Shown here: positions 2,456-46,846 of the stretch, one piece after another
How positions within the stretch are numbered: the first letter of the stretch is position 1
Layout of the letters: each line of letters starts with the position of its first letter
Source: Bacteroidaceae bacterium
GTDB lineage: Bacteria > Actinomycetota > Coriobacteriia > Coriobacteriales > CADBOM01
DNA length: 54,506 bases
Direction: 5' to 3'
Assembly (NCBI GenBank): GCA_963624975.1
Contig: CAVFRF010000064.1
Span: 1 to 54,506, forward strand
Made by a program: the position numbers and the translations under genes
The notes under the pieces: model-generated
What the model saw: only the letters and a program-made list of their open reading frames with translations
Database searches by the model: none
Told to the model about the DNA's origin: nothing

Positions 2456-2773
2456 TCAACCATCAGATCTCATATGTCAATGTCTTGATGGCCGGGTTCT
2501 CTTGCCAAGCATTTTCGAAAGGAGGTGATCACCTTGCGAAACGACAAGTAGTAGCAGCCGACAAAGTATAAACTCTGACGGCTGCTACGCTGGTGTGAGA
2601 ACACACCGTGTGACAACAGAAGCATCTCACGCCAGCCCAGCTAACAGAACTCAAAATTCCAAAAGGTGATACATCGCCGGAAGGGCAGGTGAGGAACATG
2701 CCTGGATTTTCGAGCCCATACACAAGTGCTTATCATCCAGTTGACGGCATCTTGGAATTCTCCGGGTGTTTCT

Positions 2774-3550
2774 ATGAAGCGCAATAGCATCAAGGTACTC
2801 GATAACGGATCCAAAGAGTACAGCGAAATCGACCTCTACAAGAAACTCAACTTTGAGTTCTTGCGTTACACAAATCTTACGCATGCGGCTGGCAAGCGCA
2901 ATCTCCCATCCCTCGTATGCAACACAAAAATTTTCCCTGACTACATTGCTTTGTCTAATCAGCCATCTCTTTTTCATAAAACCGAACTCACAGCAATTGG
3001 ATTTTGGGAATACGATATCGACTTCGATGGATTCGACGGGCTGTTCAACGCGATTTATTACAACAGGAAAGATCGTCTCGAATTCTATAAGAAGCGCTTT
3101 TCGAACGTGAAAATCTTCTTCACACCCGATTACTCTCAGTTTGGAGATGTGTCGGATATCGAATCTGATTACAGGTTGTTCAAAGATCGCGTAGTAGGAA
3201 TCTGGCTTGCCATCGAGCTCCACGCAGTGGTCATTCCATTTGTAACGGTTCCAACAATCGATAGCATGCCCTGGGCATTGAACGGTTTGGAGGATTGTTC
3301 GGTTGTTGCATTCAGCACCAAGGGCTATGTAACCGTCCCAGAAGAACGTTCAACGCTAAAAGCCATCGTTCGATGCACCGTGGATACGCTCGATCTGAAG
3401 ACGATAGTCGTATATGACGTATGTGGCTCCAACGATGCGGTCAACGACATATTCGCTTACCCGATTGAGCAAGGCATCGAGATCGTTGTACCCATGAATT
3501 CTCTCAAAGAACGCAACATTGAACGCAGGAGATTTCGCAATGCGCAGTAA
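2774..3550 (+). CDS. DUF4417-like protein (divergent paralog of 45001..45663)
   Basis: By-eye alignment to the second copy: FWEYDxxF vs FYEDDxKF, FTPDYSQF vs ISPDFSLY, YRLFKDR vs YRSRAF, VVIPFV vs PVIPNI, VVAFSTKG vs AIAVGSHG, KTIVVYD vs TTIVVYG. The start is uncertain: ATG 2774, or GTG 2726 as in the track. Confidence 0.55.
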   Translation: MKRNSIKVLDNGSKEYSEIDLYKKLNFEFLRYTNLTHAAGKRNLPSLVCNTKIFPDYIALSNQPSLFHKTELTAIGFWEYDIDFDGFDGLFNAIYYNRKDRLEFYKKRFSNVKIFFTPDYSQFGDVSDIESDYRLFKDRVVGIWLAIELHAVVIPFVTVPTIDSMPWALNGLEDCSVVAFSTKGYVTVPEERSTLKAIVRCTVDTLDLKTIVVYDVCGSNDAVNDIFAYPIEQGIEIVVPMNSLKERNIERRRFRNAQ

Positions 3551-4040
3551 CAACGGCCATCTTGCACACGGGACGACTGGAAATCCTCAAACTTCTATAG
3601 ATCAGGAATTCTATGCGTATGTCGTTCGCGATAACGAGCGCAGACTTAGGGATCTAGTATTGGACCCGATGATTGACGAGTCACTAGTAGCCGAGCTTGA
3701 ACGCTTGGAGGTAAAATTCAATCGCAAAGAAATGGTCTTCATCGCACGTGACAAAACAGGCCAGATTGTCTGGTTGGAGAATGGCACATCGAGCGCAGGG
3801 CTTACACATCTTGAGAAGCGTGGACATATAGGCGACTTGTCGAGAAAATTCTGCGTCGACGAATCGGATGTTCCCAGGCTCATTCGAAATATCGTGAGGG
3901 ATGGAAAGGTTGTCTCAAACAAACTTGTTGATCGCCATGGTCGCAAGGGATATGAACGAACCTACGAATATAGAGAACACAAGGTTGTTCTTGCCGCCAT
4001 CGGCACCAACGGTTTCTTGGTTACTATCTATCCTATTTAG
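3540..4040 (+). CDS. Toxin-like small protein (possible BECR/RelE-like RNase fold), function unknown
   Basis: ATG 3540 follows AGGAG at 8-nt spacing and overlaps the DUF4417 stop by 11 nt. The C-terminal half (IVWLENG..GLTHLEKRGHIGDL...YEYREHKVVLAAIGTNGFLVTIYPI) has the beta-rich ...VTIYP ending seen in DUF4258/BECR-type toxins. This is a by-eye judgement only. Confidence 0.45.
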   Translation: MRSNNGHLAHGTTGNPQTSIDQEFYAYVVRDNERRLRDLVLDPMIDESLVAELERLEVKFNRKEMVFIARDKTGQIVWLENGTSSAGLTHLEKRGHIGDLSRKFCVDESDVPRLIRNIVRDGKVVSNKLVDRHGRKGYERTYEYREHKVVLAAIGTNGFLVTIYPI

Positions 4041-4052
4041 AAAGGGAGCTTC

Positions 4053-4379
4053 ATGAAAACCATCAAGCTTATGCTCGATTACCTGCAAGGCCCCATATGG
4101 ATTAGTGATGTGGAAACAGGCAAGCCGATGACAGGTATCGACATTATTGACAACGATGAGCAGATCCGAGTTCTCAATTTCGAGATACAGAACGCTTATG
4201 ACTCGTATTACGAGTTTGATTCTCATGACCAAGCCTGCTGGTTCAACGAGGAGCAGGAGCGGAAAGACAAGGAACGCATGCTTGAGCTGTTTGCAAAGCT
4301 CAACAGCAGGCTCGACGAAATCAACGACGGGACATTCATTGTCGACGACCGCGAAACTCCGCGTATTCAGAAACTCTAA
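4053..4379 (+). CDS. Small acidic protein, immunity/antidote-like by position
   Basis: 108-aa ORF with AAGGGAG RBS, starting 12 nt after the previous stop. It is rich in D/E and has no recognisable domain. Confidence 0.5.
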   Translation: MKTIKLMLDYLQGPIWISDVETGKPMTGIDIIDNDEQIRVLNFEIQNAYDSYYEFDSHDQACWFNEEQERKDKERMLELFAKLNSRLDEINDGTFIVDDRETPRIQKL

Positions 4380-41030: not shown

Positions 41031-41042
41031 GATTTGAAGGGA

Positions 41043-41360
41043 ATGCCGATGCGAGAGAAAGTCCGAAAACTTGGCAAGATCTCCATCCCGCTCGGAGAGG
41101 GAGTCCACCTCAAAGAAGGCGAGCACCCGCTCATAAGCGAACGGGTGCTCAGCTCCGCCCAGCTCGGCCAGGCGCTGAAGAGGCGCCGTCGAGAACTGGG
41201 CTACACACAGAAGACGGCTGCCGAGCTTAGCAACCACAGCGTTCGTGCTATAGGCGACATCGAGAGGGGCCGCAGCTCGGTGGGCGTTGGCATCGTGCTC
41301 GATTACGCGCTGTCGCTGGGCGTAGACCTAACGTTGTCGGTGAGGGGCAGGTCGCAATGA
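41043..41360 (+). CDS. XRE-family HTH antitoxin (HipB-like)
   Basis: HTH LGQALKRRRRELGYTQKTAAELSNHSVRAIGDIERG. The stop overlaps the hipA start (ATGA). Confidence 0.8.
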   Translation: MPMREKVRKLGKISIPLGEGVHLKEGEHPLISERVLSSAQLGQALKRRRRELGYTQKTAAELSNHSVRAIGDIERGRSSVGVGIVLDYALSLGVDLTLSVRGRSQ

Positions 41361-42643
41361 GGCTATACGTTCACAGGGAGTTCAAGGGACGCTACGAACC
41401 TGTCGGAGTCCTGCAGGACGACAGCGGCGCACCGTCGTTCTCGTACGCCGAATCATATCTGTCTTCCAACGATGCGGCACCGATATCGATAAGCCTCCCG
41501 CTCGCAAGCGAGCCTTTCGACTCGAACACGACGGCTGCGTTCTTCGACGGACTGGTGCCGGAAGGGTCGCTTCGCAGAAACCTTGCCGATGTCGCCAGAG
41601 CCGACAGACGAGACTTCCTCGCAATTCTCAATCAGGTCAGGAACGAGCCCATTGGCGCATTGGTGTTCTCTTCAGAAGCAGAGCTCACATTTCTCGATGC
41701 ATCCTATGAAGAGCTGCCGGCCAGCGAACTGAAGAACATAGCATCGATGCCGGAATCCACGGCATTGGACCTAACACTGAAGAGCAGGATCTCGCTTGCA
41801 GGCGCGCAGACGAAAATCGGGCTCTACCATTCTGGAGACGACCCTGAAGAAGGGTGGCATCTTCCCAGAGGCGGTGCCCCATCGACGCACATTCTCAAAA
41901 CATGCTCCGAGGCTTTTCCCGGAGAAACGGTCTGCGAAGCGCTGTACCTCAAGGCTGCGAAGAGAATCGATCTGCCTGCGGCAAACTGCTTTCTGATAGA
42001 GTCTGGCGCCCGAAACCCCATACTGGCCGTCGAGCGCTACGACCGCAGGTTTCCCAATGGGAACCAACGCATCATTTCAGGGCTTCCTGCACCGCTCAGG
42101 CTCCACCAGGAAGATATGTGCCAGGTGCTGGGAATTAGCTCGGGTTTGAAATACGAGGCGACGAGCACCGACTATCTCAATCTGATGTCCTTTGCCCTAA
42201 CCGGATGTTCGAGCGAGCCTACGGAGGACAGGTTCACGCTTGGCTATTTCCAGTTACTCGATTACTTGCTCGGAAATTGCGATAACCATCTCAAGAACTG
42301 GTCCATCCTCTACAGCGAAGACTGGAACGGTGCGAGGGTGGCCCCTCTCTACGATGTGGTGAACACGACGATCTATCCGCAGCTGGCGAGGGAGATGGGC
42401 GTTTCCTTCGGAGGAAGCCGGGTTGTCGACGACGTGACCGCCGATATGATCTACGAGCGCTTGGGCAATGCCGGCCTGGCTTCGTATTTCGTGAAACAGA
42501 TGTGCGCGGATATGAGAGAAGAGTTGGTACCAGCTCTCGAAGATGCGGCCAGCGAACTGGCGGAATCGGGCTTTCCGGAAGCGAAGAGCCTACTAGACGA
42601 AATCGAGCCTGGCATCAAACGCCGGCTCGAGGTAATAGCGTAG
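41357..42643 (+). CDS. hipA: HipA-family serine/threonine kinase toxin
   Basis: 428 aa. N-terminal coupling domain (FSYAESYL...PISISLPL, FFDGLVPEG), then LAGAQTKIGL and the catalytic NCDNHLKNWSILY. Confidence 0.88.
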   Translation: MRLYVHREFKGRYEPVGVLQDDSGAPSFSYAESYLSSNDAAPISISLPLASEPFDSNTTAAFFDGLVPEGSLRRNLADVARADRRDFLAILNQVRNEPIGALVFSSEAELTFLDASYEELPASELKNIASMPESTALDLTLKSRISLAGAQTKIGLYHSGDDPEEGWHLPRGGAPSTHILKTCSEAFPGETVCEALYLKAAKRIDLPAANCFLIESGARNPILAVERYDRRFPNGNQRIISGLPAPLRLHQEDMCQVLGISSGLKYEATSTDYLNLMSFALTGCSSEPTEDRFTLGYFQLLDYLLGNCDNHLKNWSILYSEDWNGARVAPLYDVVNTTIYPQLAREMGVSFGGSRVVDDVTADMIYERLGNAGLASYFVKQMCADMREELVPALEDAASELAESGFPEAKSLLDEIEPGIKRRLEVIA

Positions 42644-43334: not shown

Positions 43335-43370
43335 CAAGCTCGTTGTTGCCCCGGTCGCGTGCAACGTTTA
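43335..43370. repeat. Left copy of a perfect 36-bp direct repeat
   Basis: CAAGCTCGTTGTTGCCCCGGTCGCGTGCAACGTTTA is identical at 43335..43370 and 46616..46651. Confidence 0.95.
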
Positions 43371-43382
43371 CCACGAGACCGA

Positions 43383-43691
43383 TCATCGGCTATGGCTTTT
43401 TTGAAACTTGGCAAATGCGCCTGCCGCATCCTGCACGTTGCCTGCGGCGTAATCATCGTATCCCCGCTGGATTTTGCCGTGAATCTGTTCTTCGGTCATT
43501 TTTGAAGCATCAATGCTTTCGGGAGCTTTGGGAATAGTTACCGGAAATGGGATCCCTCCTACGAGCACCACTTGGGTCAAAAACATATCGACGGCTGTGG
43601 ACATCGGTATTCCGAGTCTCCCCAGAACGTTTTCTGCATCGTGCTTCAATGTCGGGTTGATCCTCAAATTGAGTGTTGCAGATTTATCCAT
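43383..43691 (-). CDS. RelB/DinJ-family antitoxin, with no cognate toxin adjacent
   Basis: N-terminal ribbon-helix-helix LNLRINPTLKHDAENVLGRLGIPMSTAVDMFLTQV. The stop lies 12 nt from the 36-bp repeat. Confidence 0.8.
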   Translation of the reverse strand: MDKSATLNLRINPTLKHDAENVLGRLGIPMSTAVDMFLTQVVLVGGIPFPVTIPKAPESIDASKMTEEQIHGKIQRGYDDYAAGNVQDAAGAFAKFQKSHSR

Positions 43692-43805: not shown

Positions 43806-43856
43806 TTGACATTTTTTGTCGCCAAGGTAAAATGCCAACTGGTAATTTGATTACCA
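43806..43856 (+). promoter_or_regulatory. Promoter plus 17-bp palindromic operator upstream of the XRE gene
   Basis: TTGACA (43806..43811), a 16-nt spacer, TAAAAT (43828..43833), then the palindrome TGGTAATTTGATTACCA (43840..43856). Confidence 0.6.
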
Positions 43857-43875: not shown

Positions 43876-44181
43876 ATGGAGTTGGGAAAAAGAATTCAGG
43901 AGCTCTTAGATGCTCGCAATATGAGTAGGAAGGAACTCGCGGATGCGACTGGACTGACTGAAGCGGCGATAAGCAGGTATATCACAGGTACCCGGATGCC
44001 AAAGTCCATCAGTCTCAGCGCTATCGCCAAGGCCCTAGATGTCACGTCTGACGAGCTGCTCGGTAACGTTAACGACACAATAGACGAAGTGGACGACGCT
44101 ATCAGGCTGGTAGCCCGCAACGCGGGAAGTATTACCAAAGAGCAGAAGAAATACCTCATCAATGCCCTCATCGGAGACTAG
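43876..44181 (+). CDS. XRE-family HTH regulator
   Basis: 101 aa. HTH LGKRIQELLDARNMSRKELADATGLTEAAISRYITGTRMP. Confidence 0.88.
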   Translation: MELGKRIQELLDARNMSRKELADATGLTEAAISRYITGTRMPKSISLSAIAKALDVTSDELLGNVNDTIDEVDDAIRLVARNAGSITKEQKKYLINALIGD

Positions 44182-44190
44182 GAGGATAGC

Positions 44191-44763
44191 TTGTACCTGG
44201 AACCCTCTAGATACGAGGAGCTAAACCGTGAGGTTGCCGACCTCATAGAGACATACGATGCGTGCGCGTACCCTTTGGACGTATTCGCTTTGGCGGGTAG
44301 GATGGGTATCGTGTTGAGATCATACTCGTCAATCCCCTTTACAGAGCGTTCAGCATTCCAGAACATCTCCAAAGACGCGTTCACCATCGCGTCTGGCGAG
44401 TACGAGGTGGACACGACATTCATTTGTTACAACCAAAACATGAACGGCGGCAGGCTGAGACAGAGCATCGCCCACGAAATCGCTCACATCTGGTTGGAGC
44501 ACCCAAACGACAAGGATCCCTTTGAGACCGAAGCCGAATACTTCGCTGCATATCTTCTAGCGCCCATACCCCTCATTATCAAATTAAGGCTAGCGAGCGT
44601 ATTGGAGGTTAAAGAGCGTTTCGGCGTAAGCTTCGAGGCCGCAAGAATCTCCCTCGAGCGAGCTGGTAACAGATGCCGATGCGGCAAGGCGGGATTTGAA
44701 TACGAGTACGGGATCATCAACATGTACAACCTGAAAGGAGGTGGTTGCCTTGAAATCGCCTAG
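44191..44763 (+). CDS. ImmA/IrrE-family zinc metallopeptidase
   Basis: TTG start with GGAGGA upstream. HEXXH motif HEIAHIWLEH followed by EAEYFAAYLLAP, the typical DUF955/ImmA layout. It is paired with the upstream XRE gene. Confidence 0.85.
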   Translation: MYLEPSRYEELNREVADLIETYDACAYPLDVFALAGRMGIVLRSYSSIPFTERSAFQNISKDAFTIASGEYEVDTTFICYNQNMNGGRLRQSIAHEIAHIWLEHPNDKDPFETEAEYFAAYLLAPIPLIIKLRLASVLEVKERFGVSFEAARISLERAGNRCRCGKAGFEYEYGIINMYNLKGGGCLEIA

Positions 44764-45000
44764 CAAAAAGCGGCCGCCGGAATTGGCGTTCCAGCGACCG
44801 CGGGCGGTATGGCACGCCATACCTAGTGCAACGAGTATTGTGCCATGCCGTCCGTCGATATCGATTGCAATTCAGAAGAAATCCGACGGAAGGATACGGT
44901 GTTCCAATGGTCCAATACCATCACGTTTGTAAGTTCGTCTTAGCTCTGCATTTCGGTGTGGGTAGTACGCATCTTGCTTCTCTGAGGGGAGGTGAGTAGT

Positions 45001-45663
45001 ATGACCAAGGAAAATTACAAACGCAGCGGATGTGTTGACGTGTTCAGGTCTTATCTCGTCAAAGACGCAACATTCGCCGGTGAGCTTGAGATTCCTACAC
45101 TGAAGCCTGTCGACCTGCTGCCCGGCGAAATGAAACCCTTTTCGCAGGCCATTTCCTCTAGGAAGAGGCATATCTGGGTCCACTTCTACGAGGACGATGC
45201 GAAGTTCGAGCGCATCTGGAACAATCCAAAGCGGTACCTGAAAATGCTGGGAGAGTTCGACGGAGTAATATCTCCCGATTTCAGCCTGTATAGGGATATG
45301 CCACTTGTCATGCAGTACTGGAACATTTACAGGTCGAGGGCATTCGCTCATGCGCTGCAGTCAGCTGGCGTACCCGTCATCCCCAACATTCGCTTCGGGG
45401 ATTCTAGAACATGGGAAGCATGTTGCCTTGGAATCCCCGTCAACTCTGCCATCGCCGTTGGAAGTCATGGCAATCTGAAGAACGCCGAAGACCGCCGACA
45501 TTTCACGGCTGGCCTCGACTATGTTGTCAAGGCGGTGCGACCGACAACCATCGTTGTATATGGAGCTGCGCCAGATTCGATATTTGGCGTATACATCAAG
45601 CAAAGTATTCGGGTCGCCTCATTTACGAGCGAATTCGCTAGCTCTCGCGAAACGAGCGCATAA
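45001..45663 (+). CDS. DUF4417 domain protein
   Basis: ATG 45001 sits 8 nt after GGGGAGG. WVHFYEDDAKFERIWNNPKRYL...GVISPDFSLYRDMPLVMQYWNIYRSRAF...GVPVIPNIRFGD matches my recollection of the DUF4417 consensus. Confidence 0.75.
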   Translation: MTKENYKRSGCVDVFRSYLVKDATFAGELEIPTLKPVDLLPGEMKPFSQAISSRKRHIWVHFYEDDAKFERIWNNPKRYLKMLGEFDGVISPDFSLYRDMPLVMQYWNIYRSRAFAHALQSAGVPVIPNIRFGDSRTWEACCLGIPVNSAIAVGSHGNLKNAEDRRHFTAGLDYVVKAVRPTTIVVYGAAPDSIFGVYIKQSIRVASFTSEFASSRETSA

Positions 45664-46157
45664 TGGGTGGCGGTTATCATGGTGGCTTCGGAGCCACCTC
45701 CGGCAGTGTCGCAATGGGCGATGCTACTTTCATGGAAAGATCCGATCAGTTTCTCAGATACATCCGCAAACGATCTGATGTTGACCCTGGCGGGAAATTT
45801 GACATTATTGCGCATGGAACCGCCCAAAACATGCAGATAGAGCACAACGGGAAGAAGATACTGGTCAACTCTCGCACTGCTGCGAATATGATCAAGAGGA
45901 TTCCAGACTATAAGGGGCAAAGCATAAGACTTCTTTCCTGCAGCACCGGATCGAGAAATGCTGGCTTTGCCCAAAACCTTGCAAATAAACTTGGCGTGAC
46001 AGTCTATGCCCCTAACGATAAATTGTGGGCATATAGCGATGGAAGCCACATTATCGCCCCCGTCAGCTCCATTCCAGACAAATACGGCAATCCTCAGCCC
46101 GACACCAGCCGTCTTGGAAAATTTGTAAAATATACCCCGGGAGGTAACAAACGATGA
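45663..46157 (+). CDS. Unknown 164-aa protein with His...Cys dyad pattern (clan-CD/CPD/DUF4347-like, by eye)
   Basis: The start overlaps the DUF4417 stop (TAATG). The N-terminus is Gly-rich. FDIIAHGT and, about 45 aa later, IRLLSCSTGS each follow hydrophobic strands. This is followed by FAQNLANKLGVTVYAP. Confidence 0.6.
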   Translation: MGGGYHGGFGATSGSVAMGDATFMERSDQFLRYIRKRSDVDPGGKFDIIAHGTAQNMQIEHNGKKILVNSRTAANMIKRIPDYKGQSIRLLSCSTGSRNAGFAQNLANKLGVTVYAPNDKLWAYSDGSHIIAPVSSIPDKYGNPQPDTSRLGKFVKYTPGGNKR

Positions 46158-46504
46158 ACTGCCCAAAATGTAACAGCTCAACTATTTCTAAAATCGAAGG
46201 CTCCACTTTGATAATCAAATGCACAGAATGCGAGTGGTCGGTTGCAACGAGCTATGTTGACCCGATCTACGAAGACGAGACCGTTTATATCGTTCGGGTT
46301 GGTCAGGTTCTCGACCCTAACAAAGAGCAGCTCAAAGCCGTCTCTTCTGTAGCCGGAGTTAACTTCATCGCTGCAAAGAAAACCTTGGAAACCCCGGGTG
46401 CAACTTTGATTGAAGGTCTTGCTCCAGAGATTAAAGAAAGCGTAGCGAAGCTTTCTAAATCAAATGTCGCCATCACCATCGAACCTGAGTATCCCTATCT
46501 CTAA
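46154..46504 (+). CDS. Zinc-ribbon protein with an L7/L12-CTD-like C-terminal half (immunity/antidote-like by position)
   Basis: ATGA overlap with the upstream gene, and GGGAGG RBS. CPKC..(14)..CTEC forms the zinc ribbon. The C-terminal KEQLKAVSSVAGVNFIAAKKTLETPGATLIEG resembles the ribosomal L7/L12 C-terminal domain pattern. Confidence 0.6.
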   Translation: MNCPKCNSSTISKIEGSTLIIKCTECEWSVATSYVDPIYEDETVYIVRVGQVLDPNKEQLKAVSSVAGVNFIAAKKTLETPGATLIEGLAPEIKESVAKLSKSNVAITIEPEYPYL

Positions 46505-46615: not shown

Positions 46616-46651
46616 CAAGCTCGTTGTTGCCCCGGTCGCGTGCAACGTTTA
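46616..46651. repeat. Right copy of the perfect 36-bp direct repeat
   Basis: Identical to 43335..43370. Confidence 0.95.
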
Positions 46652-46846
46652 ACATATCGCTTTGGCTAGACTCGCTTGTTTTCGACTAGCATATAGAAGG
46701 TTTGTCGGACGTTTACACGTTTGCGCGTTTGCGCGTTTGCGCGCCAAAGCGTTCGCGCATCGAAGCGTCGGATGCCCGGCGGCCTGCAGGAAAGGGTCGG
46801 CTTGCCATGCCAACGGCGGGCCGCAAGGAGAAAAGAGAAAGAGACG

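Follow-up and report, generated by a model that had tools for sequence, protein, structure and literature searches.

Polymorphic toxins (PMC3482391) and the phage-linked MuF class (PMC5576092) join a constant N-terminus to exchangeable C-terminal toxin domains. In polymorphic toxin loci the toxin gene is directly followed by its immunity gene, orphan modules are found, and the domains come from a shared pool that includes Ntox50, LHH, CdiA-CT and SUKH; the MuF class is connected with phages by its position next to terminase genes. The switches CapH/CapP, ImmR/ImmA and DdrO/IrrE consist of adjacent genes that encode a repressor of the helix-turn-helix (HTH) type and an HExxH peptidase of the M78 family, which stand upstream of a potentially toxic operon with a palindrome in the target promoter region; in the CapH/CapP-type family, DNA damage or single-stranded DNA (ssDNA) triggers cleavage of the repressor (bioRxiv 10.1101/2022.04.27.489752). 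Traits of both kinds meet in a five-gene locus at positions 43876-46504 of contig CAVFRF010000064.1 (GCA_963624975.1), analysed as one stretch of 54,506 nucleotides (nt; the window), and in its relatives. The assembly is labelled Bacteroidaceae bacterium and is placed by GTDB in the Coriobacteriales; organism labels on metagenome-assembled genomes are possibly wrong. With a probability of about 0.7, the locus is a polymorphic toxin–immunity cassette that is derepressed by stress and whose constant partner, a protein of the DUF4417 family, works through a short leader peptide on the toxin.

The five genes share one orientation on the forward strand, as the initial annotation of this DNA had described and as the open reading frame (ORF) listing and Pfam searches bear out. 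An XRE-family HTH repressor of the ImmR/CapH-like type (43876-44181; HTH_3, E 2.5e-14) is followed by an M78 zinc metallopeptidase of the ImmA/IrrE/CapP-like type (44191-44763; PF06114, E 1.8e-13, HEIAH motif). After a gap come a DUF4417 protein of 220 amino acids (aa) belonging to clade A (45001-45663; PF14386, E 2.7e-63), a predicted toxin of 164 aa with a probable C80/clan-CD-like cysteine-protease fold (45663-46157) and a cognate immunity candidate of 116 aa, composed of a zinc ribbon and a C-terminal domain (46154-46504). The assignment to PF14386 is well above the gathering cut-off of 28.9 bits for the third gene (213.2 bits) and extends to a second ORF of the window at 2726-3550 (41.7 bits). 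The ORF of the third gene opens with a GTG at 44992, but the stronger ribosome-binding site is found at ATG 45001, which is the likely start. The last three genes are coupled as proposed: in the TAATG junction the last A of the DUF4417 stop codon TAA (45661-45663) is the first base of the ATG of gene 2, and in the ATGA junction the ATG of gene 3 (46154-46156) overlaps the stop codon TGA of gene 2 (46155-46157). The latter overlap fits a bacteriocin-like arrangement in which the producer stays protected.

The same succession of genes is present in 80 loci from species-level genomes and in 36 from metagenomes, which argues for a functional unit rather than chance adjacency. The comparison set comprised 122 related loci and 80 phage-type viral loci. 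A scan of genomes with a DUF4417 alignment, with one genome per species, found 311 with a relative, of which the best 80 were analysed; the 36 metagenome loci form the clade B set. A gene 2 was callable in 82 loci; in 68 of them its first base is also the last base of the DUF4417 stop codon, and in the others it starts no more than about 20 nt away. A Shine-Dalgarno sequence lies within the last DUF4417 codons. Fusion of DUF4417 and toxin by frameshifting was considered and rejected, as the gene 2 frame is closed 1-27 codons upstream of its ATG and the Shine-Dalgarno sequence precedes that ATG.

The clade A DUF4417 proteins share at least 52% identity among the best 80 species, and the gene 2 products of this clade all begin with a leader of about 15 aa, with the consensus MGAG[FYI]HGGFGxTxG (MGGGYHGGFGATSGS at 45663-45707 in the window). 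This feature had been missed in the initial annotation. Conservation is 100% at M1, G2, G4, G7 and F9 over 72 distinct proteins and collapses past residue 15. The codons of the leader vary synonymously, so selection acts on the peptide. No Pfam trafficking domain was found in the leader. At least 16 unrelated C-terminal domains, each of roughly 100-150 residues, follow it, and most of these 16 families have no Pfam match. Those recognised include Ntox50 (Pfam E 1e-27), an LHH (HNH/EndoVII) nuclease (E 1e-30) paired with a SUKH_5 gene 3 (E 3e-29), and DUF6883 paired with DUF4926. One gene 3 family accompanies each gene 2 family, except for the P164-like cluster, which is divided between two. 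The suggestion that a conserved gene 1 would precede variable genes 2 and 3 is thus strongly positive across the related loci. Of 110 loci, 16 contain orphan immunity genes or toxin stubs that lack the leader (the window has none), a footprint of module replacement as in contact-dependent inhibition (CDI) and Rhs loci. One locus (L050, 699-1801) carries, upstream of its active cassette, an immunity gene, a 76-aa C80-like toxin fragment, another immunity gene and a toxin fragment; judged by this content, the region is an orphan-module graveyard.

A second cassette in the window, at 2774-4379, had been cited as following the same three-gene logic, and it is a true sibling that belongs to the other DUF4417 clade. 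On the forward strand it encodes a clade B DUF4417 protein of 258 aa (2774-3550, in the ORF from 2726; PF14386, E 1.1e-10), a predicted toxin of 166 aa (ORF 173) with a clade B leader (MRSNNGHLAHGTTGNPQTS) and a CdiA-CT-like domain (3540-4040), and a cognate immunity candidate of 108 aa (4053-4379). This DUF4417 protein has 222 homologues, and its named relatives are in Coriobacteriia. In the 36 metagenome loci the leader of clade B reads [DNKS][ST]G[LQ][AS]xGT[ST]G[SA]PQ and is followed by a helical linker. The leaders of the two clades align on a G-x-x-x-H-G-x-x-G core, and the clade B toxin domains come from the same pool as those of clade A. Since each clade keeps its own leader type yet shares the toxin pool, DUF4417 would work through the leader. 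The family profile of the second toxin matches chain C of PDB 7M5F, ‘Toxin CdiA’ of a Serratia marcescens CDI complex (E 4.7e-19), and the same family is also found behind clade A leaders. The 108-aa immunity family is present in all clade A loci that have this toxin family, and also occurs as an orphan downstream of other pairs; it was considered as a relative of the CdiI of PDB 7M5F, to which it shows no similarity. Next to the second cassette is a type II restriction-modification pair, made up of an EcoO109I-type endonuclease and a C5 cytosine methylase. These lie on the reverse strand at 148-2260, in an island of 45-47% guanine-plus-cytosine (GC) content, and the methylase has an N-terminal MerR-type HTH.

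The 164-aa protein had been called protease-like for its His...Cys layout, and a clan-CD/C80-like fold is indicated by a sub-threshold Pfam hit, by Foldseek and by invariant residues. Peptidase_C80 is its sole Pfam match (17.0 bits against a cut-off of 23.8 bits, E 0.007). With the AlphaFold model (predicted local distance difference test, pLDDT, 77), Foldseek ranks the cysteine protease domains of MARTX and TcdB first, followed by SAVED-CHAT, Craspase CHAT and legumains; the best match has an E-value of 1.5e-3, a probability of 1.0 and a template-modelling (TM) score of 0.41. Structural relatives searched at the sequence level gave nothing significant. Residues H51-G52 and C93 are invariant in the family, which also has a GFAQNLANKL motif. 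The 272 close homologues are mostly about 160 aa long, and their contigs show two layouts, either the full five genes or genes for DUF4417, a 163-aa and a 115-aa protein amid housekeeping genes. The family profile has 3037 matches among 1.84 billion representative proteins. In long proteins the toxin domain (profile positions ~15-160) is C-terminal, and ten of these proteins carry Fil_haemagg_2 repeats with DUF637/PT-VENN, RHS repeats, PT-HINT or PT-TG. This position in RHS, CdiA, PT-HINT and PT-TG proteins makes the domain of the 164-aa protein a probable, uncharacterised killing domain of polymorphic toxins. The leader is confined to the DUF4417-linked form and is absent from the RHS- or CdiA-fused copies. 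Giant proteins of 3000-6800 aa (P0361-P0365, P0399, P0407 and P0409) hold 4-7 internal copies of the C80-like domain; there the fold may be a repeated processing or adhesin module and not a terminal toxin.

The 116-aa protein carries a CPKC...CTEC pattern, with C3, C6, C23 and C26 invariant in the family. It was detected in five non-redundant loci (L001, L004, L026, L027 and L072), in each of which it stands behind one of the nearest relatives of the 164-aa toxin. Searches of PDB and Pfam gave no significant match for it, and a resemblance of its C-terminal half to the L7/L12 C-terminal domain, suspected by eye, gained no support (non-significant profile hits at E 0.1-1, nothing in Pfam).

The repressor–peptidase pair, previously read as a derepression switch, recurs upstream of DUF4417 in 74 of 100 evaluable loci, namely 57 of 75 in clade A and 17 of 25 in clade B (iterated profile searches). 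In the window the two proteins match the PADLOC models capH (E 3.8e-12) and capP (E 7e-12). A putative promoter, TTGACA-16-TAAAAT, lies upstream of the XRE gene at 43806-43833 (+; consensus scan, 11/12 match). Directly 3′ of the peptidase gene, a terminator scan located an A-run, a 13-14 base pair (bp) hairpin and a T-containing tail (44770-44801, +). Across 26 loci both sides of the hairpin have changed in 13 of 14 pairs, and its pairing reaches 72.6%, against at most 40% in slid controls; none of 500 shuffles reached this value. The hairpin is probably a terminator that splits two transcription units.

Beyond the hairpin, a putative operator and promoter of the DUF4417 operon was read by eye at 44806-44849 (+). 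It comprises the palindrome GGTATGGC-AC-GCCATACC at 44806-44823, a -10-like TATTGT at 44836-44841 and a third half-site, GCCATGCC. This layout recurs in the 26-locus alignment with different palindrome letters, for example GGATGC..GCATCC. The gap between the peptidase and DUF4417 genes is 240 nt in the window and typically 190-260 nt in related loci. Rfam found no known RNA element in the 240 nt at E-values up to 1, RNAalifold predicted no pairs on a gappy global alignment of the gap, and direct pair counting supported the first hairpin only. From this layout the five genes appear to form two transcription units, not one operon, with the XRE repressor acting on the second promoter. By analogy with the CapH/CapP-type family, DNA damage or ssDNA could be the inducer at the window locus.

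[quoted passage not shown] Its predicted model (pLDDT 86) is barrel-like, with alternating beta and alpha elements, and neither Foldseek nor a sequence-level structural search found a close solved relative in PDB. Residues D66, D93, S95, D99 and R113 are conserved in all three DUF4417 clades, which points to catalysis rather than to a passive chaperone role. By sequence and model, DUF4417 is probably an enzyme.

Viruses encode DUF4417 too, in 507 phage records, among them 385 of mycobacteriophages in which it is gene 1 or 2, and in upwards of 562 viral contigs. These phage proteins share at most 41% identity with clade A; many carry a ParB-type N-terminal extension, and a single one is annotated as a queuine tRNA-ribosyltransferase. 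The ORF that follows usually starts with MGGRGAS, MGTRGSS or MGRGRS. Genes for the small terminase, the large terminase and the portal come directly downstream of the DUF4417 pair in 26 non-redundant viral loci; the 78 ORFs downstream include 23 Terminase_3, 7 Terminase_6N and 7 portal family members. Among the proteins bearing the phage leader are ADP-ribosyltransferase toxins that resemble VIP2, encoded by mycobacteriophage Bugsy and Gordonia phage JSwag; in both, a small gene follows the toxin gene. In these two phages (Bugsy, L088 653-2552; JSwag, L127 430-2281) the DUF4417 gene is annotated ‘nuclease’, lies at the left genome end and overlaps by 94-163 nt the ADP-ribosyltransferase gene, whose product starts with MGGRGS and includes a long poly-Gly linker; a gene for about 100 aa and an HNH gene come next. 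This layout suggests a toxin–immunity pair carried by the phage and built to the same plan.

A subset of the phage effectors (L161, L176 and L208) starts with MK[LI]NIQLF-GGRGAS. In one chromosomal toxin family (clade A loci L011, L033, L051 and L082), (K)[IL]NLQ[FL]FA stands straight after the leader. Both the MK[LI]NIQLF prefix and the chromosomal motif resemble the Prp F|A site of Firmicute L27 and of the capsid and scaffold proteins of phage 80alpha. Methionine removal or Prp-type cleavage would each expose GGRGAS, and these motifs suggest that trimming by a host protease may expose or remove the leader.

Under the proposed mechanism, the XRE repressor would hold the promoter of the DUF4417 operon closed until the M78 peptidase cleaves it, the signal most likely being DNA damage or ssDNA. 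Three translationally coupled genes would then yield DUF4417, a toxin composed of leader and killing domain, and a matching immunity protein that shields the producer. DUF4417 would act on or through the leader, by recognition, by processing or by hand-over to a release or delivery route. Toxin–immunity modules would be exchanged by recombination just downstream of the leader, leaving behind orphan immunity genes and leaderless toxin stubs. The toxin would be aimed at other cells, since the co-expression of toxin and immunity, the retention of orphan immunity genes and the use of inter-bacterial toxin domains favour such a target over a suicide or defence module.

Several points weigh against this reading. 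No signal peptide and no secretion-system, lysis or phage structural gene was found in or beside the chromosomal cassettes, and with no recognised export genes the killing of other cells remains an inference. The M78 peptidase of the window is a single Pfam domain of 190 aa that matches positions 7-148 of the 242 in the capP profile; as this is the N-terminal part only, the ssDNA-sensing part, a C-terminal GAF-type domain in switches of this family, may be missing. About a quarter of the loci, including the second cassette of the window, have no XRE and M78 genes. The 80 genome loci are top matches and not a random sample, and the ORFs of the related loci were called mechanically. The interaction of DUF4417 with the leader is inferred, and the clade-specific leaders could also result if the leader and the 3′ end of the DUF4417 gene are inherited as one recombination block. 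The Foldseek matches of DUF4417 are to generic TIM barrels (weak, E at least 0.015) and to phage TGT/DpdA-like proteins, ‘queuine tRNA-ribosyltransferase’ (weak, E 6e-3).

The matches to TGT/DpdA-like proteins, the one phage protein annotated in the same way and the hypothetical nature of the contact between DUF4417 and leader would suit an arrangement of unrelated neighbours, in which DUF4417 modifies nucleic acids (in the manner of DpdA/TGT, for example) and a selfish addiction module, the toxin–immunity pair, has by chance settled at its 3′ end. That arrangement is highly improbable, given that the start-on-stop junction is kept in more than 100 loci, that the leader peptide is conserved over at least 16 unrelated toxin families and that three DUF4417 clades each have their own leader type; a hitch-hiking module needs no common N-terminal tag. 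A defence role of the abortive-infection or toxin–antitoxin type is unlikely. Here the toxin would stay inside and kill or arrest the infected producer, with DUF4417 as sensor or activator and derepression by DNA damage or phage infection. Such a role draws on the PADLOC matches to CapH/CapP, a pair that controls anti-phage operons (bioRxiv 10.1101/2022.04.27.489752), on the restriction-modification system beside the second cassette, on cassettes that have no export machinery and on the AbiEii-type AAA_21, AAA_15 or SMC_N ATPases encoded by some flanking genes. Most flanking genes of the chromosomal cassettes are housekeeping genes, however, and evidence for a role in defence islands is weak. 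Because toxin and immunity are co-transcribed and translationally coupled, induction alone should spare the producer, and the orphan immunity genes against other toxin families, retained beside the pair in 16 of 110 loci, are sensible only if toxins come from outside. The toxin domains are likewise those of CdiA, RHS and type VII secretion system (T7SS)-type inter-bacterial toxins, with SUKH immunity. In PADLOC-DB v2, neither DUF4417 nor either toxin or immunity protein has a match at E < 1e-3; the second toxin matches DrmC weakly (E 0.0075), and good matches are confined to the two regulator genes.

The phage loci raise another explanation, in which DUF4417, as enzyme or adaptor, recognises the Gly-rich tag and loads the tagged effectors into capsids or onto DNA during its packaging. 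In phages, injected effectors would come from the DUF4417 and MGGRGAS pair directly upstream of the terminase genes, and the chromosomal cassettes would be satellites of co-resident prophages that deliver toxin upon SOS induction. The number of viral DUF4417 genes, the MGGRGAS ORFs that usually follow them, the position of the pair directly upstream of terminase and portal genes and the many ParB-type extensions are all consistent with it. So are the effectors with an MKLNIQLF|GGRGAS start, similar to the site at which Prp cuts capsid and scaffold proteins, and the ADP-ribosyltransferase toxins followed by a small gene; a head-cargo role has been proposed for toxins of this kind encoded close to packaging genes (PMC9503650; PMC3482391). 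In view of the phage context, capsid loading is an attractive candidate route, but the explanation as a whole is distinctly doubtful. Viral contigs contain practically no cassettes of clades A and B (only 2 of the 80 top loci are above 41% identity), no terminase, portal or capsid genes are found near the chromosomal cassettes, clade B leaders are not N-terminal glycines, and virion association of these proteins is hypothetical. Embedding of the chromosomal cassettes in prophages likewise gained no support, their flanks showing no phage genes. A stress-derepressed toxin–immunity cassette with DUF4417 as constant partner accounts best for the loci compared here.

The window cassette lies in a repeat-bounded, low-GC island, as had been described, with a GC content of 0.50-0.53 over 43-47 kb against 0.63-0.67 in the flanks. 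The two copies of the 39-nt direct repeat (43335-43373 and 46616-46654) are identical at 38 of 39 positions and enclose an element of 3.28 kb with six small genes. A RelB-like antitoxin ORF on the reverse strand (43383-43691; PF04221, E 1.5e-9), absent from the earlier gene list, lies inside the element; its end is 10 nt from the left repeat, and it has no RelE-type partner. None of the six genes is an integrase, excisionase, replication or structural gene typical of the immunity region of a prophage or an integrative and conjugative element. An empty site that would indicate mobility was not found among the same-species contigs, all of which carry the element. Just upstream of the island, in a stretch of 57-59% GC, a gene for a HipB-like HTH protein (108 aa) overlaps one for a HipA kinase toxin (428 aa; Couple_hipA and HipA_C) at 41034-42643. 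Further away, a patch with a GC content of 0.47 (32010-33091) contains three tandem paralogous ORFs of 101-106 aa with 30-37% mutual identity and no Pfam match, laid out like a tandem array of immunity-type genes. A role as orphan immunity genes of the DUF4417 system found no support, as they have no similarity to any cassette protein.

The locus had been put forward as an undescribed conflict module. No publication on an association of DUF4417 with such genes, or on a system of this composition, was found in the literature available as full text, outside which most subscription journals fall; the module itself is classifiable as a polymorphic toxin–immunity cassette. Further papers have DUF4417 only as an entry in gene tables. 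The survey of polymorphic toxins (PMC3482391) does not have DUF4417 among its trafficking modes, and that of viral ADP-ribosyltransferases (PMC9503650) describes no DUF4417 association.

The cassette provides a functional context for a family found in hundreds of phage genomes and in over 300 bacterial species of gut and rumen. It also represents a new constant module for polymorphic toxins, in which an enzyme-like gene and a 15-residue leader replace a large trafficking domain, and it widens the range of CapH/CapP-type DNA-damage switches, so far tied to anti-phage systems, to include toxin–immunity cassettes. New toxin and immunity families can be discovered by looking immediately downstream of DUF4417 for the leader. 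If the leader is a delivery or packaging tag, it would reveal an undescribed protein-toxin route in Gram-positive gut bacteria and possibly a tool for cargo loading. Were the chromosomal cassettes indeed to load phage particles, minimal toxin satellites would arm prophage particles upon DNA damage, and transducing particles would become kin-discriminating weapons.

Colicin and pyocin operons are SOS-induced, co-express toxin and immunity, swap killing domains and have toxins with a disordered, Gly-rich N-terminus. Co-expression, domain swapping and the Gly-rich N-terminus are common to the cassette, whereas the cassette lacks a lysis gene and domains for receptor binding or translocation, has an extra enzyme-like gene, and resides mostly in Gram-positive hosts. 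The type VI secretion system (T6SS) adaptors DUF4123, DUF1795 and DUF2169 and the T7SS LXG–Lap partners are encoded by a small upstream gene and recognise the constant N-terminus of the effector. Such trios resemble the cassette in having a conserved small gene immediately upstream of variable effector–immunity pairs, but no T6SS or T7SS genes lie near the cassette, and DUF4417 has an unrelated fold with a conserved acidic site and is enzyme-like. In phage T4, short conserved N-terminal capsid-targeting sequences are carried by the internal proteins, which are hypervariable small proteins. A short N-terminal peptide and phage genes beside head and packaging genes are likewise found with the phage DUF4417 pairs; the peptides have no sequence similarity to the T4 sequences, the chromosomal cassettes have no capsid genes, and involvement of a prohead protease is hypothetical.

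For the 164-aa toxin, the best fold match is the Peptidase C80 domain of MARTX and TcdA/TcdB (PDB 3GCD, 3EEB and 3PA8), with which it shares His-Gly after one strand and Cys after the next. It differs in being a stand-alone or C-terminal killing domain instead of an internal autoprocessing module, and activation by inositol hexakisphosphate (InsP6) is not expected in bacteria. [quoted passage not shown] Compared with polymorphic toxins, the constant part of the toxin is reduced to about 15 residues, with no LXG, RHS, PAAR, MuF or filamentous haemagglutinin trafficking domain and no identifiable secretion system, and the constant element, DUF4417, is encoded apart from it in an upstream gene, usually preceded by the XRE/M78 switch. 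The type of system is thus already known, while the module of DUF4417 and leader, and its regulator, appear to be new.

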